Below are positions 14,301-63,005 of a stretch of DNA of 64,000 bases, in pieces. The notes beneath the pieces were generated by a model that had not been told where the DNA came from, made no database searches, and saw only the letters and a list, made by a program, of their open reading frames with translations. Each line of letters starts with the position of its first letter. The stretch's first letter is position 1. This stretch comes from Phoronis australis (lineage: Eukaryota; Animalia; Phoronida): positions 162,204 through 226,203 of the forward strand of contig NMRA01000134.1 of assembly GCA_002633005.1 (NCBI GenBank). Reading direction: 5' to 3'. A program made the position numbers and the translations under genes.

Positions 14301-16568
14301 TTGACAAAGATATGTAAGATAAGATGATGTAATCCTTTGCTATGAAACCATTTCATACAAGCCACCCAAGACACTCAAAAACACAACAAGAGTGACTACA
14401 GTCAATGACGGTGTGACAAAAATGCTCAATAAAGTAAGTCACAGGTTGCTACCACTTAAAAATGCCCAGCATTGGATTTTTCAACACAAAACATAGCATA
14501 GCATAGCATAGCATAGCATAGCATACATAGCACGGGTCAGAGCAGAAATAACACATCCAAAAGCTAAGCATTTATTTACAAACACGGGGTAGCAACATCA
14601 AAACAATAAGTTCGTTAAATTAACATTTTGTTTATTTTACATTTTATAATACGTCTCAACTGTCTGATTTCAACGAGATGAATTATACTAAGAATAACTA
14701 GATAACACTTTTCAGCAAATACTTTTGAAATTGAAAAAGTCCAGTGCATCTAGTTTAAACCTGTAGCAACTACTTTACTTCATTTTAAAACAGTCTTTGT
14801 AATATTTAATCATTTTTAGGTTCTTAGGTGTGAGATACGTTTTATCTGTTGCAAGTTTAGAAAGTAAAGACCTAAGATTATTAATATTAGCTGAAAAATT
14901 GTAATTTAAAGGCTGTGACAGATGTACGTGACAGAAATTTGCCCTATGTCTGTCACACAATTTCTGACATAACGTATAATCCCTGGGATCTAAAATTTTA
15001 GTCAATAGTATTCAGTACAAAGTTCAAAGCGAATCTGAAATTATTTTAATTTTGATTGAAAACTTTTAACGTAACTAAACCTTTAGCACTTTTTGTGACA
15101 GACGTATGGCACCATGATATCCAGGAGTTGACCTTTGACCCCAAGAGGTCGATGATGTCCAAAGTTGTAATGTTATTTTGTATAAAGCTAGGGCTTCATG
15201 TGATAGCACAAATTTGATAATATAGTGAAATACCCATAATTAGTTTGTTTATGAAAATAATTAACAACACACATGAAAATCGAGCTAATTTTTTAGGGTC
15301 AAGTGACCCCTAAAAATAGGTCCATTTAGGCAAAAAATTAAAAGTTGTGGGGCAGTCATATATGGGTAATGAAACTAGAGAGACTGGGTTTTCAAATGAG
15401 ACCAGAAAAGTAAGTATAGTAACAATTTTATTTTTTGTCTCTAGGTTGACCTTTTCATGGCATTGCACATTGATAACTGACTGGATTATTGCAGAATGGC
15501 ATTGATAACTGACTAAACTGTTGCAGAATTGCATTGAAAACTGACTTGACTATTGCACAGTACCATTTATACCTGATAGGACTAATATAGAATGGCATAG
15601 ATAACTAATTAAGACTATTGCAATGTTTCATTGTTAGCCGACTGAAAAGTACCATTGACAACTGCATACACCAAAATCGTCAAGTGTATGATCTTCCCCT
15701 GTTGAAAATAAGACTGCGCAATTCAACTGGCGAGTCACCCATCAGTAATAAATAAAACAGCAAAATCAATTAAAAAATATCACAACAAAATTTGCTAAAT
15801 TAACAGACAAGAAATTCAAGATTTGTTCATAGAATTTACCTGCATTGTTCATAAGAACGTCCAGTCTCTCTTCAGTTTGATTGATTCTCTCGGCAAATTC
15901 TCGCACAGACTTGAGTGAGCCCAAGTCGACAAGTTGTAATACAACATTGTCATTACCAGACTGTTTCTTCACGTCGTCGACCGCCTCTTGGCCTCTTGTT
16001 TGGTCTCGACAGGCCAGAATTACACGAGCACCTGGTATGCAAACAACAATGTTATGCAAATCAAAAGCCCTTAAATAGATTTCATTTTAGCACGTATCAA
16101 TTCCCTCAGTCGGTGTTTAATAATCATCAGTTATCAGAGAATTTCTTCAAACCATCCTTGGTGCTTAATATTCGATTAATAGGGAATTCCCCCCAGCCTA
16201 GGGTCTAAGGCCACAGTTCAGGCCTTTGTTGAACTGTCAAAGGAGGACTGATGCGTGGGCTTTTTGAGGACGCCAGATTCCATTTGGCTGGCTAGGGGCA
16301 GGGCAGAGTTTTAGCCAGGCCGAGGATTTTGCCCGTCAGACATTCGCATCCCCGAACTGCCAAATGGAATCTGGGAGAATTTTAGGGGGGCTATGGTCCC
16401 CTTGGCCCCCTCGAAGTCCGCCACTGATTAGGCCTACAACTGATTCGTTTACTCATACTTACCTCTTTGAGCCAAATCCACAGCTGACTGCTTTCCAAGG
16501 CCTATGTTCCCTCCTGTGATGAGAACAGTTTTCCCGTCCATTTTGATATCTTGTACACTCTTGAACAT
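8250..16568 (-). CDS. Retinol dehydrogenase 11/12/13/14-like classical SDR, 6 coding exons, 873 nt / 290 aa
   Basis: Exons 16568-16463, 16031-15840, 11884-11723, 10518-10396, 9610-9427, 8355-8250, all GT-AG with consistent phases (1,1,1,1,2). Motifs: [45 protein letters not shown] (YxxxK), [14 protein letters not shown]. Confidence 0.95.
8990..9110. repeat. 38-bp tandem repeat, ~3.2 copies
   Basis: Unit TATCAGACTCCATGGAACCTCRTARCATTACACAGCAG, with no unique spacers. Confidence 0.95.
9427..9610 (-). CDS. SDR exon 5 ([17 protein letters not shown]...GAETQIFCS...GSYF)
   Basis: Lies within ORF 9423..9626; ATTAG| acceptor and |GTAAGT donor. Confidence 0.95.
10396..10518 (-). CDS. SDR exon 4 with catalytic YxxxK ([13 protein letters not shown])
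   Basis: Manual translation; TTCAG| acceptor and |GTAATG donor. Confidence 0.95.
10854..11681. mobile_element. Helentron-associated (HINE/pearl-like) non-autonomous element in SDR intron 3
   Basis: Starts AACAAGAG and ends with hairpin CCACA...TGTGG followed by GCGCATAA. Degenerate ~150-bp internal repeats (GAATCCATC.GAAAA, CAAATTT..TGAAAATC, AAATTGCCA.TA). The architecture matches HINE-type elements; family assignment is inferred. Confidence 0.6.
11723..11884 (-). CDS. SDR exon 3 ([29 protein letters not shown]...NLSSSAHE)
   Basis: Manual translation; CACAG| acceptor and |GTAAGT donor. Confidence 0.95.
11950..12140. mobile_element. MITE-like inverted repeat with CACTAGGTGGC in both arms
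   Basis: CATTACAACAAGCAGTTTGACATTCACTAGGTGGC is inverted relative to GCCACCTAGTGAGTTACAAAGTTGCTGTTGTCATG. Confidence 0.55.
12770..15665. repeat. ~33-bp minisatellite array (12770-13174 and 15469-15665) split by an insertion
   Basis: Degenerate units GACTGGACTAYTGCAGARTTGCATTGATAACT on both sides of 13175-15468. Confidence 0.85.
13175..15468. mobile_element. ~2.3-kb non-autonomous DNA transposon (possibly Sola-like) in SDR intron 2
   Basis: Imperfect TIR GGGCAATTCCA / TGGCATTGCAC, with GTTG/ATTG flanks as a degenerate 4-bp TSD. Internal TGACRGAYGTA motif recurs; (CATAG)n at ~14491-14530. Superfamily uncertain. Confidence 0.55.
15840..16031 (-). CDS. SDR exon 2 (ARVILACRD...LDVLMNNA)
   Basis: Lies within ORF 15766..16059; CCAG| acceptor and |GTAAAT donor. 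Confidence 0.95.
16463..16568 (-). CDS. SDR exon 1 ([35 protein letters not shown])
   Basis: GCCAAGATG start context, Rossmann TGxxxGxG motif, donor G|GTAAGT. Confidence 0.9.
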
Positions 16569-20656: not shown

Positions 20657-21401
20657 TAGACGCGTTTGCATTTAACGTGTAGCCGAAACTCGCTACTAAA
20701 CGCGTGTAATATTCCAAATGCACTGCTCGCCATTCGCTCGGGTGATTTCGCATGGTCTAGGGTGATCTCGCTTTTCTAGCAAGCACTTGCTCAACGCAAC
20801 GCAGCCGAAGCTCGACGCTTAAAATGACAAGCCAGTGTATTCCTAATCTCCAGCAATGAGTAACGATTTCCCTCCAGGGCAGCAATCACCTCCACACTGA
20901 ATGAAGAACAAGCAGAGAACAGCCCCTGATATTGTTTATATACCAGAAAGATGCGATCATTGCGGCACAGTGAGGGTTGTTTTGGTGGTTTGAGACGTGC
21001 GTCCTTTACCCCCAGTTGTCCATACAACTCGCCCGGGCCGAATTCGAAGCGTTGGTCAAGCATCCCGATTTAGCAGATTTCAGTGCGGGGTTGTCGAATT
21101 TGAAACAAACATGTACCACAGAGCATTATTGTGTTTCAGAAATTTAATGTCAAGTCTGTGGTAAAATCAAACGATAGTCAAAAACACAGTGCTGCTTGAA
21201 GATAAAAAACGAAATGATGTCGTGTTGAAATAACATCACCTGGAACAACTTAGTTTTGTTAAGTTTCGTTTTATCAGTGAAGTTCAAAGTTAAAATGAAG
21301 AGGAAAGATCTACTGTCCATCAGGTAATAAAATTTATTGAAGAAAAATGGTAATGGTTTTAAGACGCTCCAATGGCTTCACTGTCTTTCACAGATAGTTC
21401 G

Positions 21402-21526
21402 AAAGTGATAGACTTGGGGTACACGTCATCAAAGTGATAGACCTGGGGTACACGTCATAAAAGTGATAGACCTGGGGTACACGTCATAAAAGTGATAGAC
21501 CTGGGGTACACGTCATAAAAGTGATA
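21402..21526. repeat. 29-bp tandem repeat, ~4.3 copies
   Basis: Unit AAAGTGATAGACCTGGGGTACACGTCATA, near-identical and without spacers. Confidence 0.95.
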
Positions 21527-21795
21527 CAAGACAGAAATTCGGTCTTATGCTCCAAACAACTATTTTTGAAAAATAATTAAATCTCACTTTAGCAAAAGAG
21601 CAAAGTCTCTGAGGATATACAGAGAATATAAACAACTGTTAAATACTGAGATAATTTCCTTAAATTATTTCTAGACCGTGCCGATACGCTCATAATTACT
21701 TAGCTAATCCTTTATCCACCAATTGGGAAACGGGAGCGTAAACCAAATTTTTGTCTCTAAATCTCAAGTCATTTTTTATGAAACCGGCCTCTGTG

Positions 21796-22227
21796 GCCGG
21801 TTGCATGAAACAGTCTCAAATAGGAACTCGACTAAGATCCCTAAGTCTTTTTGCGTATTTGTGTCTTTATGGACTCACAGATGCAATTTGTTTCTATCAT
21901 TTCATCCTTATTAAGAGCTCCCCTTTGATTAATGACATTTTCTAATAATAGAATTAAAAATGAGCCCAGAGTTCATTGGAAATAAACAGGGACTCAAACC
22001 TTAAATTGGGGGTGTTGCATGAAAAGATACCTAAATATTTTCGACAATATTGACAATTCAACGTAGAATTCACTCTCGACTTGTATCAAAGTCAAAAGTT
22101 GACTTAGTAATGAAATTAAAACAATTCAAGAAAGGAGAATCGATGTTTACACAAGTACAAAAATACTCAGAAGATTTAGGGAACTTAGTTGAGTCCCTAT
22201 TTGGGACTGTTTCATGCAACCGGGCAC
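21796..22227. mobile_element. MITE (probably PIF/Harbinger-type), flanked by two diverged copies of a ~200-bp direct repeat (21532-21745, 22270-22470); related decayed copy at ~32050-32530
   Basis: TIR CCGGTTGCATGAAACAGTCTCAAATAGGAACTCGACTAAGATCCCTAAGTCTT versus AAGATTTAGGGAACTTAGTTGAGTCCCTATTTGGGACTGTTTCATGCAACCGG. Confidence 0.75.
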
Positions 22228-23750
22228 AAGCGTCTGCTTCATGAAATAAGACTTGATACTTTCTTAAGTCAGAAACTTGGTCTTACGCTCCACATTACTA
22301 TTTCAGAAAAATAATTAAAACTCATTTGAGCAAAAATGTAAAGTCACTGAAAATGTTCACACGACTGCTAGTTACTGAGATAAGTTCTGTGAAATTACTT
22401 CTAGACTATGGTGCGCTTATGACAACTTGGCTAAACCTTAAACAATTGTGAAGTGGGAGCGCTGAGAACAAATTTCTGAGTCATTTTCGTGGCACAGAAC
22501 CCAGGGCCCAGTGTCTAGTCGGTCCATTCGAAATGATTTTTCGCATTTTAAGTTTTATTTGTACAAACTCAAGATAAGTGTTTTGTTTTGCTCTGCTCGA
22601 GTATGTTATGGTTTATACAGACGAGTGTCTAGTTCAAATTGGCACTTGACGACCTGTCCAGATTCGAACTACGAACTCAAGTAAAACTCGAGATTTCGAG
22701 TCGGCTCAAACTTATAGCGCTAATGCTGGTTTCATCAAGTGCAAGCCACGATTAGAAAGCCATTCATGCAAATCATAATGCACTCGTGTATAAATGTAGA
22801 GCGGAAAATATCAAAAATAATTTCGATTTCGAGTACAAAGATTAGACACCAGGCCCAGATGTCCGGCCTGTGATATATCTGAGATGGGCTTCGTTCCGCA
22901 GACCCAAAACAACCAAGAGAAAAGGTAGAATGAGCACGTGCCTCGCTTGTAAATTCATGGCAATATCTCGCGAGATTCTTGTGTCTACGGAACGCAGTCA
23001 AAGGGCCCGTGTGTTGACACTTAAATACATGCAAATAGGATTACCTCCCTTGCTACACCCATAAATGATGACGTTAGCAATGACGAATTAAACGAAACTC
23101 CTCCTGTTACATTTCTTAGATAACATTCACAACTTTGCAACAGCTAGTACATAAACAGTTTCTCACTAACATGTTAACAAAAGTGGGCGTACCAAAATTC
23201 TGAAAAGAATAATAAAAATATCTTGACATCAATACTACAAAAGTTTGTGCAGTGCTCGGAAACTGCGGTTTTTCACAAACTCAGTCTTGTACGCTTTTTT
23301 TCTTGCAGTCTGTTCCCTGGCTAGCCGTGAGAAAATTCATATGTAATAAATATCAAGACTGCAGGTCGCGACCTCTGTTGTGCGATCAAAACTTGCATGG
23401 GTGGGAATGAACAAAGCATGTGTTTCACTAAAAAGTCGTCATTGAACCTTTTTAACTTACGCCGTAACTTAAGATTTAAGTCGGCGTTTCAATTAATAGC
23501 TTAAATGTTGCTGAAGTTATTTCTTCACATAAAACTTGTTTCAAATTTCAGAAGCCACCGTGGAAATCAGTGTTGCGTCCCGTAGACTAGATATAAGAGC
23601 GGGAATAAAACTGTAATGTGACCACGTGCTTTTCATGTTATGCATGACAATACCTCCCAAAGTCTCGCGGTAATACGAGTTTCTTGGGTCTACAGAACGC
23701 AGGCCAAACCTGTATGACCAAAAGAGTTTTTAGGTGCTTTAATTAATGAA

Positions 23751-25147
23751 TCAGACTCCAAGTCCATGAACATAGAGCAAACAACAAAGCTTATATCCAT
23801 ACCTACAAACAAACAAGCACAAAAAGGTTGTGAAGGCAATATTCCCAACGGAAGCAAGGCACTGTCCTATTTACCTGCCGATGAAATTAGCTTGGTCACA
23901 GTCCGAGTTATCTCGTTTGACGTTTCTTCGCAAAAAGAAACCAGTCTTCAAAGAATCATCGCTACAGTTTCCTGAATTGTCAGTAACCCATAAAAAGGGT
24001 TACTGGCTTGAACAATGTTACGTTTTCCAACAATGTTTCCACTTGCTATTGATGCCCATAACTTCGCGAGTGTTGGCTTATGTCGTAAACGATCCCGTGC
24101 ACAGACGTCACGTGACCCTACTGTTCACACGGTGTCCACCACGCAAAATCACACGAGCATGTGTCTAAGCTGAATACGAGGCCGTGAGGACACAAATAAC
24201 GTTGTGTCTTTGTGCGGTGACCTTTGTACAGAACTTTCTCTTTTCTTATGAATTCTCTGCAGTTTGTCCGTGACACTATCGTGTAAATACTACGTGAATT
24301 GTGACAACAAGTACCCTCATCTAAGCACGATTCTGAAAGAAAAATATTGGCCGAATTATTAGGAATGGCAAGGGAATCTTGAATGTCGTAAAAGAGTGGC
24401 GGCTCAACTACAATTTTCGAAGCTATGACGACGGCGATGCTTTTCCTTTATCTTTTTTCTTGTCGTGTCTTATGGCAAGAGTAATGAAAAGCATTTGGCA
24501 ATATGAATATTGAAAATGAGGACTTTGACCCATGTCTTATCCGGATTGACATTGAATCGTTTTAAGAGCAGAAAAAGGCTTATACACTTATTCATGTATA
24601 CTTTTAACATTTGATATTGTGCATGTGTCACAATTATCAAATGACCACTAAAAACAGTTAAAAAATCTTTATTTCTCCACTTCAACAAGTTATCAATTTA
24701 TTGGCCCAACATGACAACACTCACTGTCTCCCCCGGCCTCATGCAACATTAACTTATTGGCCCCACGCAATAGTGACGTTATTATAACTAACTGCCCCCA
24801 GATAACGACTGCACGTTTTTATAACTTATTGGCCACAAACAACAAAATACATCATGACCTATCGGTTGTGTGGTCTATAAACTTGAAGATGCCATGTGCA
24901 CGTTGGATCCGTTTGGTTTTTTTCAAACCGGTTAGGTTAGATTCTTCTACGACTTCTGTTGGAGAACTGTTCCACTTGATTTGACTCGCATATGACTAAC
25001 TGTTAAAAACTTACTTTTTCGTCCCATACTCCATCTCTGCCTGTAGTGAGCTGAACTCTCGTTTCCAGTCGGTTTTGTTGCGCACAAACTCAAAATAAAT
25101 AGCATAACAACCATCACCGCGGCGGTGACTTTTAGACAAGTCGACAT
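23751..25147 (-). CDS. Putative neuropeptide/peptide-hormone precursor, 3 coding exons (25147-25015, 23971-23875, 23802-23751), 93 aa
   Basis: Spliced product MSTCLKVTAAVMVVMLFILSLCATKPTGNESSAHYRQRWSMG-RKR-NCSDDSLKTGFFL-RR-NV-KR-DNSDCDQANFIGRYGYKLCCLLYVHGLGV*. It has a hydrophobic signal peptide and a Gly + RKR site. Donors are GTAAGT and GTAAAT; acceptors are TTCAG and TTTGTTTGTAG. Only the phase-correct frame of exon 2 is stop-free. Confidence 0.65.
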
Positions 25148-25433
25148 TGTAATATTTCAAATTCATGTGTTTTGGCCACTTGGGCTTTGCAATTTCCTGA
25201 TCGAACACTTCGTTGACAACCTTTGTGGTATCCTATAAGATCATAAGATTTATTCAAGTCCTGTTCAGCTTGTCCGACGTTCTGCGGTATATGCAGCTGT
25301 TGTTTACCGCGGATGGACTTTTTATAGGACTCCAGCTTTTCGGGTACCGGTAATGTTATACTTAAAGAACACAGTCCCGACGCGTAACCAGAAACCCGTC
25401 GGACACACCCATAATGCAGTACCGTTTGGGACG

Positions 25434-25490
25434 CTCGCCGGTTCCCTACGTGCCGCTAGGTGGTAGCCGGGCACGTAGGGAACCAGCGAG
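25434..25490. mobile_element. 57-bp hairpin micro-element with 9-bp TSD (TTTGGGACG)
   Basis: Stem CTCGCCGGTTCCCTACGTGCC / GGCACGTAGGGAACCAGCGAG; the same 9-mer lies on both flanks. Confidence 0.85.
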
Positions 25491-26379
25491 TTTGGGACGA
25501 TCATCGTCTGATGTCAAACATCTGTGTCGTTTGGCAGTTGGCCTGAATGGCGGAAAGATATCAAGAAAACTCATCCACGGCTTGAAACTATCCGCAGAGT
25601 TTTGCTTTAGTTTTTCATGCCATTAGACATTTCCTTCTTCGAAATGCAATGAAATATTTTATGAATGTGTAAGACAGATAAGCCTGTCCCCTGCGGTCCC
25701 TATGACTCTGATACGACTGGTACATGTTTTGACGGTTTCAATTCGAAGCAGACCTATCTCTAAATGGTTTTCCTAGACCAACTGAAATTTTTTATTACGT
25801 CATACCATGTTGAGGTCTGCCCCATCACTCTGTTCAAATTACCATCTGGACCAAGTTTATGTCTTCAGTCGTTAATAGTTATTGCCTTTTCCGGGGGCGT
25901 GTACTGTCTGACGAAATCTCGACAAACAAGAGGCTAAAGAATATTTTTAGCATCGCCTTGCTACGTCATACGAAATGTAATATAGGCTTGGTTCATACGG
26001 CATTAAATGACTGTTTCTGTTTTAAAAGTTCGGCGCTAAAGGCTTCTTACCAAAACGACCACACCACTAAGGCTTGTCACAAAAATGAAATGAAAGTGGA
26101 TAACACTGGTCCCATTTTGCTGGTTGTCTTTAGTGGTCAGTGGTTTTTCAAAACTATACGCGTCAAATAGAGGATATAAAAGAAGAGAGCCCCCGGTTTT
26201 TATAGCATTGCCTTGTGTTGACTTCTTCCAGATGCAAGCTGTGGATGGCTGTAAATTAGCCTATTTACAGACACTAAAAGAACGTGCTGCCTAACTGGTG
26301 TTGTGTAACAGTCAGTGTGGTCACAGCCCCTGGTATTGACTTTGAAATTACCATCTGTAAAAGATGGTAAGTCCGACTA

Positions 26380-28110
26380 TAACCGTAGGGCGTATTTAGA
26401 CATTATGTATGACGCCATTCACTACCCGTTAACACGCTTATTTTTGACGGAATTCAAATTTGAACGCTTTTTGCGACAATATCCAAATTTTAATGTGTCT
26501 GACGCAAAGTTGGGAAGTGAAAAAATATTGAAGCACCTTCCGAAACCTTCTAGTACCTGTAACCAGAAACACATCATTTCTTCCCTCTGGCTACGTCCTC
26601 GTACAGATATGGCCAACATGCTTTAAAGCTTCTAACTTTTACTGCTCATAAAAACTAAATATTTGGAAATCATGTATATCTTCCTTTTCTGCTATACTGT
26701 AGCACATTTTCCAGTCTTACTATACAGGAACATTAGGGACTCCCATAACGCATGTTTTGGAACTAAACTGAGACTCCCTGCATTGTGAGCAATAAACAAG
26801 ATAAACTGATGACAATCACAACCTTCGGTGGTATCACTGAAAGTTTTCATAAATGGCTCAAGTTCACAGCTTATCCTCAATTAACTGAGAAAAAAATCTG
26901 TACGCAAATCGTGCTGTCGAGCGATTCTTATAATTAGAAGAACGCACGACATGAAAGTGGTTTTTAAAACTGCCCCAAAAGACATTATGGTGCTAACAGT
27001 AGCAGTTCTGAGCGAAGCAATTCCAAGAACGGATGATGTTGCTACAAAGACAGAAAAACGTTGCGAACTTTCTGTCCTATATTTCACGACCGCACTGCTG
27101 ATAAGACAACAGACTTTCTGAGAACGGAAGTTATTTTGTAATGCAGTGACGTCAAATGACAGACTGCTAATTCAACTACAATATCTTTCAAAAGTGCTCT
27201 ATAAGTGACCATGAGACCTGTCGAATGTACTATGAATTAACCATTCACACATTTCGTATTCTTCACAAAACACGCAGACCCTTGTAGTCTCCGCGGTGAT
27301 CAAGGTTCTTTTCTGGAACAAGGGGTTCCACACAGATTTAATTTATCGCTGCTAATATTTTGTATTTTGGTATTTGCCTACTACAGCCGTTACAGCCGCC
27401 TATAGAAAGTTTGCTCTGACAAAAATGGTTTACTGAAAAGCCACCTCTAATTAAATTAATGATTGAAATCCTTTTCAAAAATGATTAATTTCGTTGTAAT
27501 ATATCAGTTTTATGTTTTTAACGATTTTTTACTCATTTCCTTACGTCGGCGTAAGAAAGCGTTTTATGGATTTGGGGTACCTCAAGTGTTAGAATTTTGG
27601 CTTCTACACAATACGTTTCACCGCCTAGTTTCTCTTTTAAGCTTCATTTTGACGCCCATCGCATATTCTATGAAACGAGAAAAATATGGGGAAGCCGACT
27701 TGCGTTCAAACAGCGTCACAAAAGAATGCACAATTCGACCTTCTCAAGAGCGCGCCAATTTCAAATTCACGATTACCCCGCAGCATTTCACTTGATGGCG
27801 CTTGTGAGATTGTGCTGTGTTTGTGAAATAAGCTCAGTTGTTGGGTAAAATCTGAAACGAGAAGTTTTTATAATAAATTCGAAATTTCTGTTTGTGGAGG
27901 ACGGTATCAGATAGATCTGAAACGCCTTTGTCCTGAAAGTAGGAAAACATATTGTTACACTGGCCACGTTTTAGAAATGTAGAGCTGATTTTAGGAATCA
28001 TATAGGAAAATATCACTTCCACGGATACTTCTCAGGTTTATCCAACACTCTGTTGTCATAAATGCAGCCCACAGCGCAGCAGTAATACTTCGTTGACAAT
28101 GGAAGGTCGA
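26380..28110 (-). pseudogene. Highly decayed THAP-type DNA transposase remnant
   Basis: YCCAVGC..DN (THAP-like N-terminus) in ORF 28013..28219; downstream fragments are only weakly suggestive. Confidence 0.3.
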
Positions 28111-35158: not shown

Positions 35159-35986
35159 TTAAGAAGTTTTTATGTTCAATCCATGAGGTTCTATTGTATT
35201 CAGTTTGTCTATCCAATATTGTTCTCTTTTAAGTCTGTGAGGGGTACTGGGGTGTTGGAGTTTTTCTATTATTTGTACAGAAAGATCTTGAATATTATGG
35301 TTTTTGGAATTGAAATGATTACCTATAGTATCAGAAATGTTTTTATGTATTATGTTAAATCTATGATTACGAAACCGAGTTTGTAGATTATGTTGAGTTT
35401 GTCCTACGTATTGGATAGAACATTTTTTACAAGTTATAAGGTAAATAATATTGTTGGTGGTGCAATCAGAATAATGTTTTATTTCAAAGTTTTCATTGGT
35501 TTGGGAAGACTGGAAAAAAGTGCTATCGTTGATGAAGTTACACATTTTACACCTAGTTTTGTTACATTGTGTGTTGCCAATAGGTTTGTCAGTTTGGTGT
35601 ATATTGTCGATATTAGCTTTAACTAAATAATTTTTTAGATTTTTACATTTTCTCCAAGAAATTATAGGGGGATGAGGAAATAGGTTTTTCATTTGAGGGG
35701 AAATATGCAGTGTAGAAAGATGTTTTTTGAAGACGTGGCTAATTCCGTTTAAACATGGATTGAACATAGTTATGAAAGGTATTCTATTAGTAGTATTGCC
35801 TTTAGTTTTAGTTCTTAAAGATTCATTTCGAGTAATTGAGCGGACTTTGTCAAACTGTTTGTGTATAAGATGTAAGGGGAAATGACGTTGAATTAGATAG
35901 TACTTGAGTTCTTTTAAACGGTTATTAAAGGAAGTTTCTTCTGAACAAATGCGTCGAATTCTTAGGGCAAGGCTATATGGAAGGAT
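35159..35986 (-). mobile_element. 5'-truncated Penelope-like retroelement: RT C-terminal region plus GIY-YIG endonuclease, reading frame still open
   Basis: LPYSLALRIRRICS...RIPFITMFNP...CNKTRCKMC...NIIYLITCKKCSIQYVGQT...RFRNH...HF...REQYWIDKLNTIEPHGLN, which are hallmark Penelope EN motifs. Confidence 0.92.
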
Positions 35987-37392
35987 TAAAAAATGCGCCT
36001 CTGCAACGATTTCACTGGTCTAACTTCCGTAAACATTCTGAAGTGAGCAGTTCTTTTGGGAAGTGTTAAGTGGCCCTTAAAAGGGCCGTTGGTTGTATTG
36101 TGCATGAGCCTTAGGTAAAGTGTGAATAATTCAACATAAATCACACAGTATACCGTTCTCACTCAAGTACTGAAGGTCCTCTTGATTCAAGTTTTCATCA
36201 GGGAAGGTTGGATGAGAACAAAGAAGACGACAATATCGATGTAGATGTGGTTACCATTCACCAACGTTGTCACGAACCCTGTCTCGTTCAGTTCTTGTTC
36301 CTGAATCCACAAGTAATCCTGAACCGTAGGGAAAAACAGGGGCAGATCCAGGATTTTGAGTTAGGGGGAGACAGGGCAGAGTATTAGCCAGGATTTTGTC
36401 CTTCACACATTCTCACCCCCGAACTGCCAAATGGAATCTGGGAGAATTTAAGGGGAGGTGGGCATGGCCCCCTCGGCCCCCCTCTAAATCCGCCACTGAA
36501 AAAGACAGACAATAAAATTCGAAAATCGTCGCTTTCGTTCTATTCCGTGTTGCTTTCACCAGATTAACATTCTTCTCCAACATCCACCTACCAAAATCAA
36601 CGTTCTAATCCATTTTTAAGAAAGGTGTGCACTGTTTTCGTCTCTTGTTGATAGTGCTTAATTTTTGTTTTTACAATGCATTAATGGTGTTGAATGCATT
36701 TAGATGAACTGGCCTCATTGAGTTGAACAGAAACACTATAAAGTTCTTAAAATAGATAGAGCAACAACAGGACTCACTAAGAATTAGTTACTTACGGAGG
36801 GAAAATGATAGGCCTAGTCACTGTGCACGTGTGCACTGAACGTTTTGTATCTTATTTTTATTTGGACAATCTTTTGATACAGCAAATTTCCTTATTTATG
36901 CCCATCCTGATTTGAACGCAACTTAAGCTTCTTGGGTTCTATCATATTGGGGTTGGCATAGGGACCCACATGGTGCTTACTCGAATGGGCTTCATTTTTA
37001 TTAGCGTAGGTCCAGTAAATAAACAAAGTGGATGATTATCCTCTCCGGGATTTCATCATTAGCATTTTTTGCTGGGTGCTCAAGTTTTCACTGATTTTCA
37101 CATTTGTGTTTCGCTGAACGTCCAGTTCTGTGGTGTTATTTATACCAGACCAAACTTAAAAAAGAGACCCTTGTTTAAACCAGGAGCTGCATAGGGTGTA
37201 ATATGCGTTGCAAATTTTAATAAAAATGGACCTGTCTAGCAAACTACGGTAAATTCATAAAAGATTACGTGCAGTGCGACTGAAGTTCATACACAGTAAA
37301 ATTCTGGACTTCCAACCACTTGATCTGAATTGACATCTCAAATGTGAGTATGTAAACTGCTGTTAAAGTGCGAGATATGATTTTGAGTAGGC

Positions 37393-40466: not shown

Positions 40467-41063
40467 TTAACATGCAATCAGGTCTCAGTCGTAACATCCA
40501 GAGCAGGTATACGACAGTTGTGTCTGTTTTCAATTGATAATACTAATTATGTCGTCTGCAACTCAGGCGCCGATTTCTCGGTAACTACAATATGAAATAT
40601 AGGAGATGTTACAAGTTAAATGCTCAGTTACTGTTGCTTTCATCTTTTTTAGCTCTTTTCAAGTAATAAATCGTTACATTTAAAACCGTTTCTTTTACTA
40701 GAGAAAACTTGCAACCCAACACGCAAGTACATGGATATAGGCTGTGATCCGCCACGTGAAAAGTCTGAGTGAACTATTTGGAAAATCTGGCGAACAAAAT
40801 TAAAGAAACTTAGGAACTTGGTGCCTATGGGATATAAATACAAAATGTACCTCGATTGCCGTTGATGAAGTAATATCCCACGAGACATTATTCCGCGTAT
40901 CGACGGAGACCGAAGTATATGTGCACTTTTACACAAATTCTGTATGCATTTTTACTCTGTATTTTACCCGTTGATACAGAAACATGGCAAAAACACAGAA
41001 TGTAAGCAAACAGGAGCACAGAATAAGAATGAAACAGTTCATAAAAACATTTATTTATTACAG

Positions 41064-42872
41064 AAGCCTGTAAAAAACAAGACAGAAAGCTGAGACAGTA
41101 TGATGTAGGCAGTCTACTTGAGGCATACGATAAAGTACTACGTGAGGATGGCATGTCCATTAACTCAGCAGCTGCAAATTACAATGTTCCATACCAAACG
41201 TTGAGAGATCGAGTAAGTGGGACGATAGAGCCAGAATGCGTCACAATGGGTGTGTCTCCAATCTTCGATGTGCATCACGAAGCCTTAATTGTAAAACATA
41301 TAAAAAGAAATGTCGAGACTTGGGTATGGGTGCAAAAGGCAAGAAGTCGGCGTTATGGTAACGGAGTGGTCAATCTAGCATGGAATAAGGAAGCCAAGAG
41401 AGTCCCTTTCCATTACGTGGTTTAGAGGGTTTGTAAAGCGCTTGCCAGAGGTGAGAGTTGTTGAGCTAAAGGGTCTACAATATGCGAGAGCAAAGTCTGC
41501 AAGTCAAGTGAATATTGACAAATATTTTGAAGTGCTGCATTCTGCTTTGGTGAAGTATGGTTTGGAAGTCAAAGCATATAAAGTATTTAATGTGGATGAA
41601 AAGGGTGTGACCACCAATTACAAGCCTCCACACATTTTCGCCTGCAGCAGAATGAAGTGTGCCCCTCAAGTGGTCACATCTGTGAGATCCGTGACCACAA
41701 CGGTATTGGGATGTGGCAGTGCAGCTAGCCAGGCGATCATCCCATTCTTTGTCTTTAAGGGCAAAAGATTCAGTTCAGATCTGCAAGATTCTTCTCCAGG
41801 GGCAACTGGAACACTCACAGATAGCGGATGGTCAAACTCTGAAGTCTTTCTCAAGTGGCTAGAAGATCACTTTGCGAAGTTTGTCCCAGGTGGCCTTCAG
41901 GAGCCCGTTCTACTGTTACTTGATGGCCACAAGTCACACACGGATATAAATGTAATAGAACGGGCGAAGAACTACAGCATTGCGAATCTAACTCTGCCAG
42001 CAAACACATCACACACTACAACCACTTGATGTTGGGTGTTATGGACCAGTGGGGGACGCGTGTAGCAATTTGTGCGGTGAAAGGGCCGGAATTACTCGCT
42101 TTGAACTTTGTTCCAAGGCAAGCAAAGCCTACATGATACGTTGTCTCCTGAAAATCTTCAATCGGTTTTCCGAAAGTCCGGAATATACCCGTTTGACAAT
42201 ACCGTTGTCCCCCCTGAAAGGATCACTCCATCCACAGCATTCCATGCGACTATTGGTAGAAGTGAGGTTGAAAATGATTTTTTTAGTAAACGGTTGCATA
42301 GGTGTACAGAAGAGAAGAGACCATTGTCAAGTGACTAAGTCCGTTCAAGCAGTTCTGCAAGTTTGTCTTGTAAGGTGCTGACAGAGAATGTAGAAATGCT
42401 GAAAAAGAAAAAAAGAACACAATGAAGGCACAGGTGACAAAAAGGCAAAGGTGACAAAAAAGGCACAAGAGACAAAAAAGAAACAGGTGATAAAAAGTCA
42501 AAGGTGACTACAAAGGCATGTGGAGATAAGAACAGCAACAAAAGTCAAGTTCAGAAGCCACGAAACGATAATGAACTAGGTCCATCAGGATTAAAGCCAT
42601 CACACGCTTCACATTTCGAAAGTGACAGAGCTGAGGACTCGGACACGGGGGATGAGGACAGTTGCTGCGTCTGGAACAAGTGGTCACCACTGCAACTACG
42701 CCAATGTGCGTCTCTTGTGATCATTAATTGGGGAAAATGTGAATTCCAAGACTGCAGCCACTGGACTCACCTAAGGTTTTGCTGTGAGGTGACAGCACTA
42801 AGGCGACACGACAGATTTGTTTGCCCCTGTCATAGCGTGCCATGCCATCAAAGCCAGCTCCAAGAAGAGTAA
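41064..42872 (+). pseudogene. Decayed pogo/Tigger-like transposase (psq-type HTH, CENP-B-type HTH, DDE_1, C-terminal PHD-like finger)
   Basis: SINSAAANYNVPYQTLRDRVSG; VFNVDEKG; SGWSNSEVFLKWL; LLLLDGHKSH; LPANTSH; W.KC...C.HWTHL.C....F.CPC. Several frameshifts and stops. Probable TIR remnants GAGGCCCTAA(..)AGTCG at 38054 and CGACTTTAGGGCCTC at 43201-43215. Confidence 0.9.
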
Positions 42873-53433: not shown

Positions 53434-54184
53434 TGATTTAAAGTTCATATACCGATTCACTTAGATTTGAGTAATTTTGACTAGTTTCTTAGAGTGACTA
53501 TTGTTAACAGTTTAATTTAGATTCGGTTTTATATAATATTGTCATGTATTTAGAGTATTTTGTGTATTTTCATAGATTTACAGTTCTCACACGGTTCTCA
53601 CAAGGATTCAAAGTTCTCACTGAGGTTCCAAGTGGAATTAGTAAATAAAATCATCTCGTCAAACTCGGACTTTGATTTTGTCTGTCCAACGCAGAACATT
53701 ACAGTAAATAGAAATCTTCCCGCGAGGACGGGGACAGTAAATAGAAATCTTCCCGTGAGGACGGGGGATAGCAAAATTGACTTCCCGTGTAGACGGAAGT
53801 AAGAAGAAGAAGTCTAAGAAGAAGATTCGTGACGAAGAAAACAAGGCCTACCTGTTTCTACATCCTGCTTGTGTGGGGTGATTCACAACAGTGTGCACTA
53901 CAGTGGACAGAGGTCAAACCATCCCTTCAGACTAAGGGGACAGTGATTGGAAACAGCTGGTATTAGGACAGTAATACCACTACGTTATATAACTGTATTT
54001 TGATTTGAGTTCAGTGAACCTAAATAAAAATGGAAGCTGCAAGAAAAGCTCGTTCAAATGCCAAGAGTTTATTCACAAGACAATGTGGACACATGAAACA
54101 ATTAGTTGCAAGAAAAGAAGCTGTCACAGAAGAAGACAAAGATAAGTTGAATTTNGATTTTGAGTTCAGTGAACCTAAATAAAA

Positions 54185-56120
54185 ATGGAAGCTGCAAGGA
54201 AAGCTCGTTCAAATGCCAAGAGACTATTCACAAGACAATGTGGACACATGAAACAATTAGTTGCAAGAAAAGAAGCAGTCACAGAAGAAGACAAAGATAA
54301 GTTGAATTTTTTGTTTCATGAATTTGATGTCAGCAATTTAAAGTATAGGGCTTTTATAGAAAGTGATGATGAGCTTTTAGAAGAATGTGAAGAGTATTTT
54401 ATGGATGAAGAATCCAAGTACATAGATACTTTAACTAGAGTTAATGAGTATTTAGATAAGTCTAACTCAGTAACTGAAACTCCCATAGAGAAACATGAGA
54501 GTTTAACCAAAGAAGAGGTAATGGGTCTTGTAAATTTACCCAAGGTCACACTAGACAAATTTGATGGTAATCCGGCCAAGTATCACACTTTTGTAGCCAT
54601 TTTTGATCAAAACGTAGCAAGCGTCGTGAAGGACGGCGATGCCAAATTAACAAGACTCCTCCAGTATACCACCGGAGCGGCCAAAGAAAGCATTCAGAAA
54701 TGCGCATTGGTCGGCGGTAAAGAAGGTTTCGAACTGGCCCGTGAGATCCTGCACTCACGGTATGGTGACAACCATAAAGTAGCAGACAGATTGATGACTG
54801 ACGTCAAAAAGGGTGGCCAGATAAGGTCATCGGCTGACCTCCAGCGTTTTGCGGATGACCTTGAAAATACCTATCTGATATTAGATAAGTTAGAGAAACT
54901 CCCTGAGATTGACACACAGGCGAGCATTTTAGAAATCATAAGCAGGCTTCAGCCCTTCATTCAGCAAAAGTGGCGAAAAAGGGCTCTCAGTTTAAAGCGA
55001 GAGGAAGACCGCTACCCCAAATTTTCAGAATTTGTGAAGTTTGTTAGTCAAATGGCAACTGATCAGAATGACCCCATATACGGAAAACATCCGTCTGCCG
55101 GTCATAGCCATAAGCAATTCAATGATGTTCCCAAAAGATCTTCCTATTTAAATACTAATGTAAAGGTGGGTCAGTCGCAAAAGATAAGAAAATGTCCTGA
55201 TTGTTCGCAGCCCCATCCACTGTGGCGCTGTGAACAATTTAAGAATAAAACGCCTTCAGAACGCCAAGTTGTGGTTGAAAGGGCTAAACTTTGTCGAAAT
55301 TGCCTTTTTGACAACCATAATTTAGAAAATTGCCAATAAACGTCTTTTTGTCACAAACAAGGCTGCGTAGAGAAACATTCATACTTACTTCATGATAAAA
55401 AAGATAGCACTCCCCCTAATGTGACCAATAATGGAATCCGGGTGGCTGACCATGGCATATATCTGCCAATTGTCCCGGTTCGGGTGAACAATGCGTACTC
55501 TACCTTCGCCCTTTTAGACACCGGGTCTTCAGGCAGCTTCTGCACCAGGAGTCTTGTTGAGAAATTGAAGCTGCTGACCACAAAACTTACATATACATTG
55601 AATACGATTGATGCCCTCGACCAAGAGCGGCGCTCTATGCAAACTGCGTGCCGCTTGACATCCCAAGACGGTGCAAACGACTTATCTATTTCTCATGTTT
55701 ATGTGGCAGAGGAGATACCAACCGACACGCCTGCTATTGACTTAGAAGCATACAACCACCTAAAAGATTTGCAAATTGTTCAAGGAAGAGTTGAAATCCT
55801 AATTGGCCAAGATAATTGTGAGGCCCTTATCCCACTGGAAGTCAGAAAGAGTAGGAAAAATGAGCCCTTTGCAGTCCGCACTATGTTTGGTTGGTGCCTT
55901 AATGGTCCAAGAGGTGGCGCTGTTAGCAGAAAGGTGATTTCCCATTTTGTTACTGGCGTCAAACCGAAAGTTTTTTCTGAATCATCTGAATTTTTCGCGA
56001 CGGACGATGGGACTGATGCTTTGGATGCCACGGGTCCATCCGTCAACGATGAGAAGGTGTTTGAGGTCAAAGATGATGACCCTGAAGTTAAACATCAAGT
56101 CACTTCGCATGTGGAAGTGC
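54185..56120 (+). pseudogene. BEL gag-protease region with one in-frame stop (55337-55339)
   Basis: ORFs 54185..55339 and 55421..56179 share a frame; read-through gives the third knuckle CHKQGCVEKHSYLLH. Confidence 0.9.
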
Positions 56121-56121
56121 A

Positions 56122-57546
56122 GTGTCTATGCCTGTTCCAAGAAAGGCAGTTATTAGAGAACATCCTCTTAAGCAACTGAGTGAATATTACTCAGACTGGC
56201 AGCGACTGAAAAGGGCAGTCGCATGGCTGATTAAAATCAAGAAGTCATTGAAAGCGAAAAGCAAGTTCACGAAACTAACCGTTTCAGACATGCAATCAGC
56301 AGAAGAAGAAATTCTGAAATTTGCACAACAAAATTTGAAAACAAATAGCGAAAATGTTCGCCAACTAAATCCTTACGTTGATGAAAATGGCATCATACGT
56401 GTTGGAGGTAGGACTAGCAAAGCTGGTACCAATAACAAAAATCAAATCATTGTCCCAAGCGGACACATTGCAAATATATTGATTCGCCATATACATGAAA
56501 CGAATCACATGGGATGTGAATACACCTTGGAAAACATAAGAGAAATGTATTGGATTCGCAGAAAAGATGTTAAATCTATCTTACGCAGATGCATTATTTG
56601 TCGTAACGTTAATGGCAGATCATGTCAACAGAAAATGGGAGAACACCCAGAGACCCGACTTGCAGCAGATGATAAACCCTTCACACATACTGGTGTTGAC
56701 TGTTTTGGTTCTTTTTTAATCAAAAGGGGACGCTCTGAATTGAAACGGTATGGATGTGTATTCACATGGATGTGTCGTACACATTGAAGTTTTGGAAACA
56801 CTCGATACTGATTCGTTCATAAATGCATTGAGGAGATTCATTGCAAGAAGAGGTCAACCAAAGTCTATAACTTCTGACAACGGTGGAAATTTTGTCAGTG
56901 GCAATAAGGAACTTGCCAAAGGTCTAAAAGAATTAGACGACATGAGGATACAAAATTCCTTGCTACAAAATAACATTGAATGGAAATTCAACCCACCTCA
57001 TGCAAGCCATCACGGCGGTGTTTGGGAAAGACAAATTAGATCGATTAGAAAAGTTTTGATAACTTTATTGGGTGAACAAAAATTGAATGATGAAACTTTG
57101 ACTACACTCTTGTGTGAAGTTGAAAGCATACTGAATAACAGACCAACAAAGATGATATGCAAGCACTTAGACCAAATCATCTTTTAATGATGAAAGAAGG
57201 TCCATCATTGCCACCCTGTGCCTCAGAGAGGAATGATATTCATAGACGTCGTTGGCGTCAAGTTCAGTACATGGTCCAACTTTTCTGGAGAAGATGGCTT
57301 AAACAGTACCTTCCCGAATTGCAACGGCGTCACAAGTGGCTACAAATTACCCCAAATGTCTCAGTAGGTGATTTAGTCTTACTCATTGAGGACAATGTCC
57401 CAAGAAATCTTTGGCCTCTGGGTAGGGTTGTTGAAGTTAATCCTGGTATTGATGGCTTAGACCGCTCAGTAAAGGTTAAAACCAGAAATACTCTTCTTAT
57501 AAGACCCATTACCCAGTTAGTGATGCTTGAAGGAAAACTTTATTGA
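56122..57546 (+). pseudogene. BEL integrase plus C-terminal domain, frameshifted near 56770 and 57150
   Basis: ORFs 56122..56787, 56750..57187 and 57157..57546 carry consecutive integrase motifs. Confidence 0.9.
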
Positions 57547-60480: not shown

Positions 60481-62372
60481 TGATTTAGTGACAGGTCTCA
60501 TTCCGGCAAATGTAATCGTTGTCTGTCAACAGTTCATTGTGATACACGCTACGCGCCGGGAGACGTATGTCAAGAAACCATTTACGAAACGAACAATACA
60601 AAACGCGTCGGTGGTTAAGGATACGTGTGCCTCTGTCTCAATAAATTTATTTTTTTTTAAATCTTTCTTTTATTCATGGCATAATATGTGAGGATTTCAA
60701 ATGTATTTCGCTTTACTCTTACAACTGTATTTTTGTATATTTAAAATCGTCGCATTTTGAAGCCCTGGCACGTGAAGCTTGTTTACCTGTGTTGTGTCAA
60801 TCTGATTTCGCGTCAAGTTTGTCCCTCAATGCAAAGCCCTATTGTTTATCAGTAGACAGGCCCATACCTCAACAGGCCATTTCATTCGTGGTCAGCTGCA
60901 ATGTCGCCCAGTATATTATTCATTGTTGATAATCGATTTCTTCGAAAAGAGGGGACGGATTCTCTCGGTGTTTGAATTTTCAGACAGCACGACCATTCAA
61001 TACGAATACCGTGTCTCAGATTTTAGATTAAAGGTTTCATTTTATGTTTGATTTAGAATTAAGAGTAACGGTGTTTTTGACATAGCGATTGCAAATAAGG
61101 ATATTTTTAAGATTAAAAAACGGTTCGCTTTATTCAAAATCCAAGACAGGGTTTTGGAGTAAATTTGCCAAAGCTTTGTTGTCCAAGGTCTTAATAATGA
61201 AGGTTAAAGGATAAATTCGTTATTTATGTACCTTTCAAAAACAAAACTTTTTCACCCAAAACACAGACTAACGGGACCACAACAATGTCACAATTTGGAT
61301 GACAGATGAATTCGTTTCGACTTCCACTTTCAGGAACTATATACTTTCATGGGTTGACAGTGGCTAGTTCAGATATTTTAGTAATATAGCATAGCAATTT
61401 GAGGTACACGTAACCTAAAGCACGACATCAAATTAATGAATTTGGGTGTAAATTTATCTTTTCTTACAACTTGCTGTGTTCGTGAGCAATAAGTCAAAGA
61501 GGCGGTGCGGCGACTCCGACTCGAAGCATTCATTCTCAATAGTCGTTTGCACACACTCACGATCAAAACGACGTTTTGTGTTTGTGTTCCGCGGTATCTT
61601 TCTATGCTATGTACACATCGTTGACTCAATATAATGGCGATTCGGTGAATGAAAGGACTGACGGTGCATACAGAAGTAGGCCTACTCTGCCTGGAGTGAG
61701 ATTCGATTTGAGTGACCTCGGATAACTGGGATAAATAGCAAACAAATTTCCACGCGACTGAAGGCGGTTCTGCTAAATCTTTTTTCTCGTTACAATGTAG
61801 ATATTTTGTTCCGCGAGAATGAAGATAAGGTATTTTTACCGGGCCAATTTTTTGTGAATAAGATTTGAGGTATCCTTAAAAATGCCGACTCTTTAAAGCA
61901 AGCGACACCCTTTGACTTCCTGGAGAACTGTGTGTACAAGTGTAATCCGGAAAAGAAACAAATTGTAAATAAACTGCGGTTTTAAAGGAAACACCACAAC
62001 TGACACACTTAAAAACAAGTTTGAACTCATAGAAAATCCTAGTAATTCCAAATATTACGCAATCGTTATTTGATAATGAAACGAACAAATAATAAACGCT
62101 GTACCATGTTTTATTAGGGTAACGATGACATATTATCAAACTCATTTACATAGAAATAGTCTCGCAAAACTAGACTTTCACGATTGTGATGGTAACTGGT
62201 TCTTCGATGGTTTCCAGCACACCGGAAGTCCAGGGTTGTTTGTAAACTAGTACTTCATTTGCATGTGCACAATTTAATGAGACAAAGTATCTTTAAGTGA
62301 AGTGGCCGGACTATCTTGGAAGCCGGGTGACTTCAACAGAAGTCGGTTCTCCAATGCTAATAATACAAAATC

Positions 62373-63005
62373 GTGCTTGAGTTTGAATACCAGCGTTTTC
62401 CGTTTTCAGCAAATGAGTATGTTTGCGAATGCTTGAAGCGTTTTACTAACAAAACGAGCTACAAGAGACATAAGCGAGAGAAACACGGAGAGCGTTACCC
62501 ATTCAGCTGCTGCCTCTGCCCAGAAGTCTTCCACACCACGTGCAGTCTCGAAGACCACGAGAGAGTGCGACACAATGCTCCAAAGTTGAAGTGTCAACAC
62601 TGTCCGAAGACATTTGCCAGTGCTAGGGGATTGAGTGAACACTTACACAGCCATACGCCAACCAAGTACAACTGTAACGAGTGTAGTAGAAGCTTTGACA
62701 ACAGAGCCTATCTCCGTAGACATGTTGCATCGCATCAGCGCGTGGAATGTCCAGTTTGCTCCAAGTCGTACTCCAGGCCTCAGCATTTGAAAGAACATAT
62801 TTCGGCAGCCCACTCTTCGAAGTTATTTGGATGTCCCATGTGCCCATTTGAGACGCGTCACGAGCGTTCTATAACACGACATATTAGCAGGCACACTCGG
62901 ACTAAAAAGCATGTTATTTCTAAAGTGGGCAGGAAAACAGCCGCAGAGAGTACCTCGCTCCACAACAGAGTACATGCAAAGACAACACTAAATCTACCGC
63001 CATAA
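62373..63005 (+). CDS. C2H2 zinc-finger protein (six fingers); probably a terminal exon starting at 62411
   Basis: Five CxxC...HxxxH/HxxxxH fingers plus a first CxC-type finger, in an intact frame. Acceptor-like CCGTTTTCAG at 62401-62410. The upstream exon was not identified. Confidence 0.8.
   Translation: MLEFEYQRFPFSANEYVCECLKRFTNKTSYKRHKREKHGERYPFSCCLCPEVFHTTCSLEDHERVRHNAPKLKCQHCPKTFASARGLSEHLHSHTPTKYNCNECSRSFDNRAYLRRHVASHQRVECPVCSKSYSRPQHLKEHISAAHSSKLFGCPMCPFETRHERSITRHISRHTRTKKHVISKVGRKTAAESTSLHNRVHAKTTLNLPP

Follow-up and report, generated by a model that had tools for sequence, protein, structure and literature searches.

The locus examined here is a real, spliced two-exon animal gene, transcribed from the minus strand of the window (the whole 64,000-nucleotide stretch of DNA analysed, to which all positions refer). 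Its product of 115 amino acids is composed of a signal-like segment, the stretch TKPTGNESSAHYRQRWSM (residues 24-41), Gly42, the basic cluster Arg-Lys-Lys (43-45) and a 70-residue domain with eight cysteines. We put forward, with a probability of about one half, that it is a convertase-cut precursor of a CBM14-type module which also frees an amidatable peptide. According to this proposal, the 115-residue chain is likely secreted and a convertase would probably cut it at G-R-K-K. The cut would free, as main product, a cationic disulfide-bonded module of 70 residues with a predicted CBM14 fold, and the 18-residue N-terminal peptide, should it pass through granules containing PAM, would be amidated. 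The module would most likely bind chitin or another extracellular polymer, with a putative role in matrix or defence.

Gene Structure and Transcription

Four RNA data sets under one species label (X1-X4) were placed on the locus. Joints were sought in 23000-26200 and listed from three reads upward, and differences from 1 read in 100. X1 consists of contigs, whose RNA origin is a guess, and the reads used amount to about 18-19% of each raw-read run. The only joint listed, 24332/25015, bounds a 682-nt GT-AG intron and is found in three of the four data sets, with a contig depth of 89.5 in X1, 12 reads from 10 starts in X2 and 14 reads from 13 starts in X4. It is absent from the listing of X3, where cover is thin and falls in the UTR only. 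Depth is 0 across 24391-24925 in all four runs. First mates over 23000-25350 all lie on the plus strand, thus indicating minus-strand RNA, as in the usual stranded library. Exon 1 contributes 133 coding nucleotides, and so the intron is of phase 1; it falls within the basic cluster, at the border between peptide and domain (table 1).

Table 1. Features of the gene and its predicted product, in window positions.
Feature	Position	Strand	Basis
TATA-like box TATAAAA	25320..25326	-	sequence; some 50 nt upstream of the furthest 5' base observed in transcripts; function presumed
Exon 1	25015..25276	-	X1 contig 25015-25276; stranded X2 and X4 reads; 5' end is the furthest contig base, true start may be further up
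Likely signal peptide, residues 1-23, cut after C22 or A23	25079..25147	-	hydropathy, -3/-1 rule
Predicted 18-aa peptide TKPTGNESSAHYRQRWSM	25025..25078	-	translation; release and amidation putative
Gly42 (possible amide donor), Arg43, Lys44, first base of Lys45	25015..25024	-	translation; codon 45 split by phase-1 intron
Intron, 682 nt, GT-AG (GTAAGT ... TTTTTCTTTCAG)	24333..25014	-	X2 and X4 junction reads, X1 contig; zero depth inside
Exon 2, coding part: rest of Lys45, 70-aa 8-Cys CBM14/peritrophin-A-like domain (24330-24121; fold predicted), stop	24118..24332	-	
3' UTR, about 1.6-1.7 kb	22447..24117	-	X1 contigs 22447-23564 and 23583-24332; stranded X2-X4 reads bridge the gap at 23573

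A preliminary description of this DNA had reported a minus-strand ORF (25147..24947) with a hydrophobic N-terminus and the ending ...HYRQRWSM-G-R-K, which is indeed present in the sequence, and a GTAAGT donor after 25015, which is real, of phase 1 and used in the RNA of X1, X2 and X4. Its central idea is right, that of a concealed gene which is spliced and encodes a probably secreted precursor; the second and third exons that it proposed fall in the 3' UTR. In effect, the RNA joins donor 25015 to 24332 instead of to the acceptor at 23971. The acceptor at 24332 has 14 pyrimidines in 19 nt, against 10 at 23971, and opens the Cys-rich frame. The 72-bp intron placed at 23874..23803 is flanked by GT and AG motifs, but depth shows no dip there (X4 depth is 19 at 23829 and 17 at 23853) and no joint for it is listed in the four runs. 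One X1 contig is unbroken over 23583-24332 and a second spans 22447-23564. Since contigs run uninterrupted through both proposed exons and the 72-nt intron, 23971-23751 is 3' UTR. The further RR and KR sites and the two Cys ascribed to the precursor therefore belong to untranslated sequence, and the true second exon with its eight Cys had been overlooked. Joining 23971 does yield an open frame and G-RKR, as described, but this is not diagnostic because many other AGs give open frames too. The arrangement of peptide, Gly and basic residues after a signal-like segment persists, with the peptide lying wholly in the true exon 1, although the cluster reads G-R-K-K and not G-RKR. As for the RNA junctions that had been singled out for checking, spliced reads occur at donor 25015, and neither 25015/23971 nor 23875/23802 is listed in any of the four runs.

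Could the three-exon form be a minor isoform? The AG at 23971 is plausible, with a branch-like TTACTGAC, GT and AG motifs stand around 23874-23803, and less than one fifth of each raw run was read. Nevertheless, both regions are read through, neither junction is listed in the four runs, and in the X1 contig the three-exon frame is interrupted by a stop at codon 59, in addition to missense changes at codons 48 and 80 (X4 has a missense change at codon 81). We thus consider such an isoform very improbable. The case illustrates how a plausible splice model drawn by eye can choose the wrong exon, with the true one sitting inside the supposed intron.

Genomic Surroundings

Two upstream ATGs lie in the 5' UTR (25244 and 25166, minus strand), the one opening a three-codon ORF and the other an ORF that extends over the main start in a different frame; the overlapping ORF has C at -3 and the main ATG has A. 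Some 110 nt upstream of the TATA-like box, at 25434-25490, is a 21-nt inverted repeat, 95% complementary, with a 15-nt loop. Since reads and contigs from numerous other loci match 25434-25470 in both orientations, we regard it as a hairpin element present in many copies, perhaps the end of a small transposon. The 3' UTR contains AATAAA at 22559; the 3' end of the gene is approximate, with repeats beginning near there. The region 21500-22970, at and past the 3' end, is rich in repeats and many reads fit it partially, and a 29-nt tandem array occupies 21402-21526. A tblastn search with the gene found no paralogue in the 64-kb window (best E other than the gene itself, 0.51), and Rfam gave 0 matches over 21000-27000.

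The nearest other host-like coding piece found is a short-chain dehydrogenase exon or fragment at 15769-16086 (minus; adh_short, E 1e-7). A GIY-YIG endonuclease ORF at 35159-36019 (minus; E 8e-9) is presumably the remnant of a Penelope-type retroelement. At 41045-42872 (plus), pieces of HTH_psq and DDE_1 lie in different frames ahead of a tail rich in Cys and His, and mark by their sequence a broken pogo-like DNA transposon. The stretch 54179-57546 (plus) begins with a tandem 155-nt duplication and holds DUF1759, aspartyl protease, integrase and DUF5641 spread over several broken frames, and the interval from protease to integrase lacks a reverse transcriptase match; we take it to be a decayed BEL/Pao-like retrotransposon. 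Finally, a C2H2 zinc-finger array ORF lies at 62364-63005 (plus; E 8e-19).

Predicted Precursor Protein and Sequence Variation

Residues 1-22 or 1-23 form a likely signal peptide, as predicted from a 7-residue hydropathy peak of 3.6 at L16, Lys6 and small residues at -3/-1. The unmodified peptide TKPTGNESSAHYRQRWSM has a mass of 2136 Da and a pI of about 10, and carries an N-E-S N-glycosylation sequon at Asn29 and, towards its end, a high share of His, Tyr, Arg and Trp. The 70-residue domain has a pI of 8.5 and Cys at positions 47, 53, 54, 69, 92, 103, 105 and 113.

Four coding substitutions were observed, two of them synonymous and the others N68D and E114D; both substitutions in peptide codons are synonymous. 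The sole coding indel is an in-frame loss of 3 nt in the signal segment (about 25119), carried by the X1 contig and by 16 of 16 X4 reads but by 0 of 3 X2 reads, and is a length polymorphism. All these alleles respect the 115-residue frame. Substitution density shows a weak contrast, both in one contig (coding 1/215 versus UTR 14/535, p 0.043) and when pooled (4/348 versus 22/1118).

A Predicted CBM14-Type Domain

Several lines of comparison, each with a modest score and all pointing in the same direction, predict a CBM14/peritrophin-A-type fold for the 70-residue domain. The best Pfam match is CBM_14 (PF01607; E 0.0038, profile positions 9-53 of 53), whose 17.8 bits fall short of the 22.1-bit gathering threshold of Pfam; at E up to 5 the only other row is a weak phospholipase A2 match, and neurophysin is absent. 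The canonical spacing of six Cys, C2-x5-C3, is not found, as there is no Cys six residues after C69: the third canonical Cys is missing, a variant that the domain has in common with its relatives in Bugula. Across six aligned domains (ours and five relatives) six Cys, Y61, F72, P93-G95-L96 and F98 are invariant. A profile compared with PDB sequences retrieved five at E up to 10, all of them bearing CBM14-type domains (best E 0.00025), and exon 2 alone had 0 matches in PDB sequences. In the Atlas, the four rows listed are all named chitin-binding type-2 (best 0.88, a lead only), and exon 1 gave no usable match there.

The structure model built from the alignment of relatives has a pLDDT of 81, against 46 for a single-sequence fold. 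It shows the distorted beta-sandwich of CBM14, towards which it leans because the alignment behind it consists of CBM14-like relatives. With this model the top five Foldseek rows are Avr4 chains, which are CBM14 folds (best E 0.12, none reaching 0.001). VIA ranked CBM14 folds in the top seven places among 48,161 chains, with Z from 5.8 to 3.6, the best being a modest value below 8; these are Avr4 (twice; 6BN0, 4Z4A), EHEP (8IN3), Der p 23, Blo t 12, tachycitin (1DQC) and the CBM14 module of CHIT1. Over 43-60 aligned residues (rmsd 2.6-3.7 A), these stand-alone proteins share with our model the predicted fold and an aromatic residue after Cys-Asp; they differ in their Cys set, and identity is 14-22%. 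An exposed aromatic follows the penultimate Cys in CHIT1 (Trp465) and tachycitin (Trp55); our protein has C105-D106-F107 at this place, with W109 and W110 nearby, hence an aromatic that is Phe rather than Trp. Phe107 aligns with a Trp in tachycitin and a Tyr in CfAvr4, and the available part of PMC4844120 describes Trp465 of CHIT1, at the matching site, as important for chitin binding. EHEP and Der p 23 have the CBM14 fold without binding chitin, according to the portion available of 10.1101/2023.06.04.543649. Tachycitin is a small CBM14-fold effector of 73 residues, amidated at the end of its domain (PMC10608444, accessible sections), whereas in our protein the Gly-basic signal stands ahead of the domain.

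Relatives of the Domain

Protein, representative, profile and metagenome searches returned no orthologue. Against 5.8 billion proteins, exon 2 had no candidate of 38-123 residues and two of 124-2000 residues, none at E 0.1. Seven matches at E up to 0.001 were found among 1.84 billion representatives, five of them multi-domain proteins with CBM14-like repeats; representatives P0006 and P0009 were dropped as apparent chance matches driven by repeats. In the profile search 14 of 55 candidates matched, all Bugula-type, a partly circular outcome given the Bugula domains in the profile. Of the 198 pattern matches in metagenome contigs, none could be confirmed. With a degenerate DNA motif that encodes the end of the peptide, 117 loci came up in 44 of 64 collection parts, and at E up to 1 neither the domain nor exon 1 was detected at any of them.

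The nearest named relatives are chitin-binding type-2 proteins of the bryozoan Bugula neritina (e.g., KAF6038495.1 and KAF6034999.1) that represent a variant of CBM14 which lacks the third canonical Cys and has C-x-C close to its end. They share with our sequence six Cys in register, the motifs Y-x7-C-x2-F, CPxGLxF and C-x-C, and a secreted layout. In contrast, identity is 27-38%, they often have two domains and no Gly-dibasic before the domain, and our protein has a 6-residue insertion and another N-terminal arrangement, with Cys47 and Cys53. Expansion of the variant (P0003, P0007, P0008, P0010-P0025) is seen in Bugula neritina and also in records of JGI, ENA and Logan, with named matches from Bugula neritina only. 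The variant seems under-annotated, as 10 of the 14 profile matches carry no precomputed Pfam label. Five Bugula relatives (P0011, P0014, P0017, P0018, P0023) seem, judging by eye, to have a signal segment; in none of them does a Gly-dibasic precede the domain, and thus the domain family does not carry this motif as a rule. The resemblance to Bugula is at most a hint of a lophotrochozoan animal.

These relatives bring up an alternative scenario, that of a single-domain secreted chitin-binding protein of matrix, cuticle, shell or gut lining which is never cut, residues 24-46 serving as a basic linker and G-RKK being due to chance. The build of the nearest named Bugula proteins (signal segment, linker, one or two domains, no Gly-dibasic before the domain) agrees with it, and both the sequon and the weak basic site fit a linker. 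However, three basic residues abut the domain, with Gly before them and Arg at P6 and P8, and relatives at 27-38% identity say little about the linker of our protein; we deem this scenario unlikely.

The Putative Cleavage and Amidation Site

Residues before the domain form a 23-residue linker. A Gly-dibasic arises there in 3.4% of cases when the mature chain is shuffled and in 12% when only the linker is, and shuffled linkers show some dibasic pair 45% of the time. As the locus was chosen for the Gly-dibasic, this evidence is modest. Convertases cut less well at RK and KK than at KR or RR, and the furin motif R-X-K/R-R is absent at the cluster. Arg at P6 and P8, here Arg36 and Arg38 relative to Arg43, favours convertase cleavage. 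The N-E-S sequon looks more like part of a pro-region or linker.

The convertase-cut CBM14-type precursor draws support from the single joint seen in three of four runs, from coding changes that respect the frame, from CBM_14 as best Pfam match, from the position of the intron at the peptide/domain border, and from the existence of small effectors with a CBM14 fold. It is weakened by the poor RK and KK sites, by the 45% chance of a dibasic pair, by Pfam, VIA and Foldseek scores below threshold, by the missing third Cys, by CBM14-fold proteins that do not bind chitin and by the weak density contrast.

Comparison with Known Peptide Families

The reverse emphasis is also conceivable: a neuropeptide or hormone precursor in which the amidated peptide, as 18 residues or trimmed (e.g., pQRWSM-amide), is the signal and the CBM14-like domain its companion. 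The succession of signal peptide, single peptide, Gly-basic site and Cys-rich domain parallels that of vasotocin/neurophysin and NG-peptide precursors, as far as the available text of PMC8557429 describes them; here the Cys-rich domain is CBM14-like, with neurophysin unmatched at E up to 5, and the peptide has no Cys ring. Further points in its favour are the rarity of the Gly-dibasic in mature-chain shuffles and its absence from the five signal-bearing Bugula relatives, the His, Tyr, Arg and Trp of the peptide end, the synonymous nature of both peptide-codon substitutions, and a 3' UTR about five times the coding length. Against it stand the lack of an orthologue in the searches made, the higher frequency of the motif in linker-only shuffles of a locus picked for that motif, a weak RKK site and a sequon reminiscent of a pro-region or linker. 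In addition, the searched supplements of four neuropeptide catalogues held no match to the peptide: RWSMG is absent from those of PMC8557429, PMC6425005 and PMC3890597 (the latter two partially covered), and RWS from that of PMC8398477. Overall, we find this emphasis possible, if rather doubtful.

The likeness to GnRH/corazonin peptides suggested in the preliminary description breaks down on intron phase and on the register of Arg-Trp, the only element in common. In the accessible text of PMC10321317 the first intron of deuterostome GnRH/corazonin genes is of phase 0; ours is of phase 1, and a phase stated for deuterostome genes may not be a protostome rule. The starfish corazonin ArCRZ, HNTFTMGGQNRWKAG-NH2, and amphioxus GnRH/CRZ (PMC4923880 and PMC10321317, available parts) do resemble our sequence in having one peptide directly behind the signal peptide, in lacking an N-terminal Gln and in an Arg-Trp pair near the C-terminus. 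Yet ArCRZ keeps RWxxG in the mature peptide (PMC4923880, same parts), whereas in ours the Gly would be consumed to give RWSM-amide, with Arg-Trp, by eye, one residue nearer the amide. Because of the phase-1 first intron and the consumed Gly of RWxxG, we do not file the gene under GnRH/corazonin. The lack of Gln at peptide position 1, remarked upon earlier, is correct, and some true members of the family lack it as well.

Prohormone-4, in the sections available of PMC8398477, similarly carries short peptides ahead of a borrowed extracellular module, there an LDL-receptor class A; our protein has another module and no long Cys-free tail, and no sequence likeness was seen. The iPTH/PXXXamide family was rejected, as our peptide has Arg and not Pro at -4 and no Ser-Asp near the N-terminus (PMC7224569, in part), and so were, from the parts of their descriptions available, the oyster GRWRN, GSWN and GWE precursors, on sequence or layout. 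The layout of amidated peptide plus CBM14 does not appear in the portions searched of PMC7224569, PMC11359391, PMC6523705, PMC10888236 and PMC11335235. A search of full-text literature retrieved no neuropeptide precursor paired with a chitin-binding domain, within a scope mostly outside subscription journals, where a described family could hide.

Implications

If the peptide is not made, or is made but not active, the gene would add one further divergent small secreted CBM14-like protein. A tentative proposal, which we view with some doubt, is that ...HYRQRWSM-amide represents a new invertebrate neuropeptide family for which a CBM14 domain was recruited as companion, comparable to neurophysin with vasopressin, or else that a signal peptide and a chitin-binding effector are released together, coupling signalling with matrix building or defence. 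If the peptide is both made and active, the combination of an amidated peptide and a CBM14 domain would be an additional precursor design, and the peptide a candidate ligand for orphan receptors. In that case, since pipelines would label such precursors as chitin-binding only, families of this kind may escape neuropeptide catalogues.
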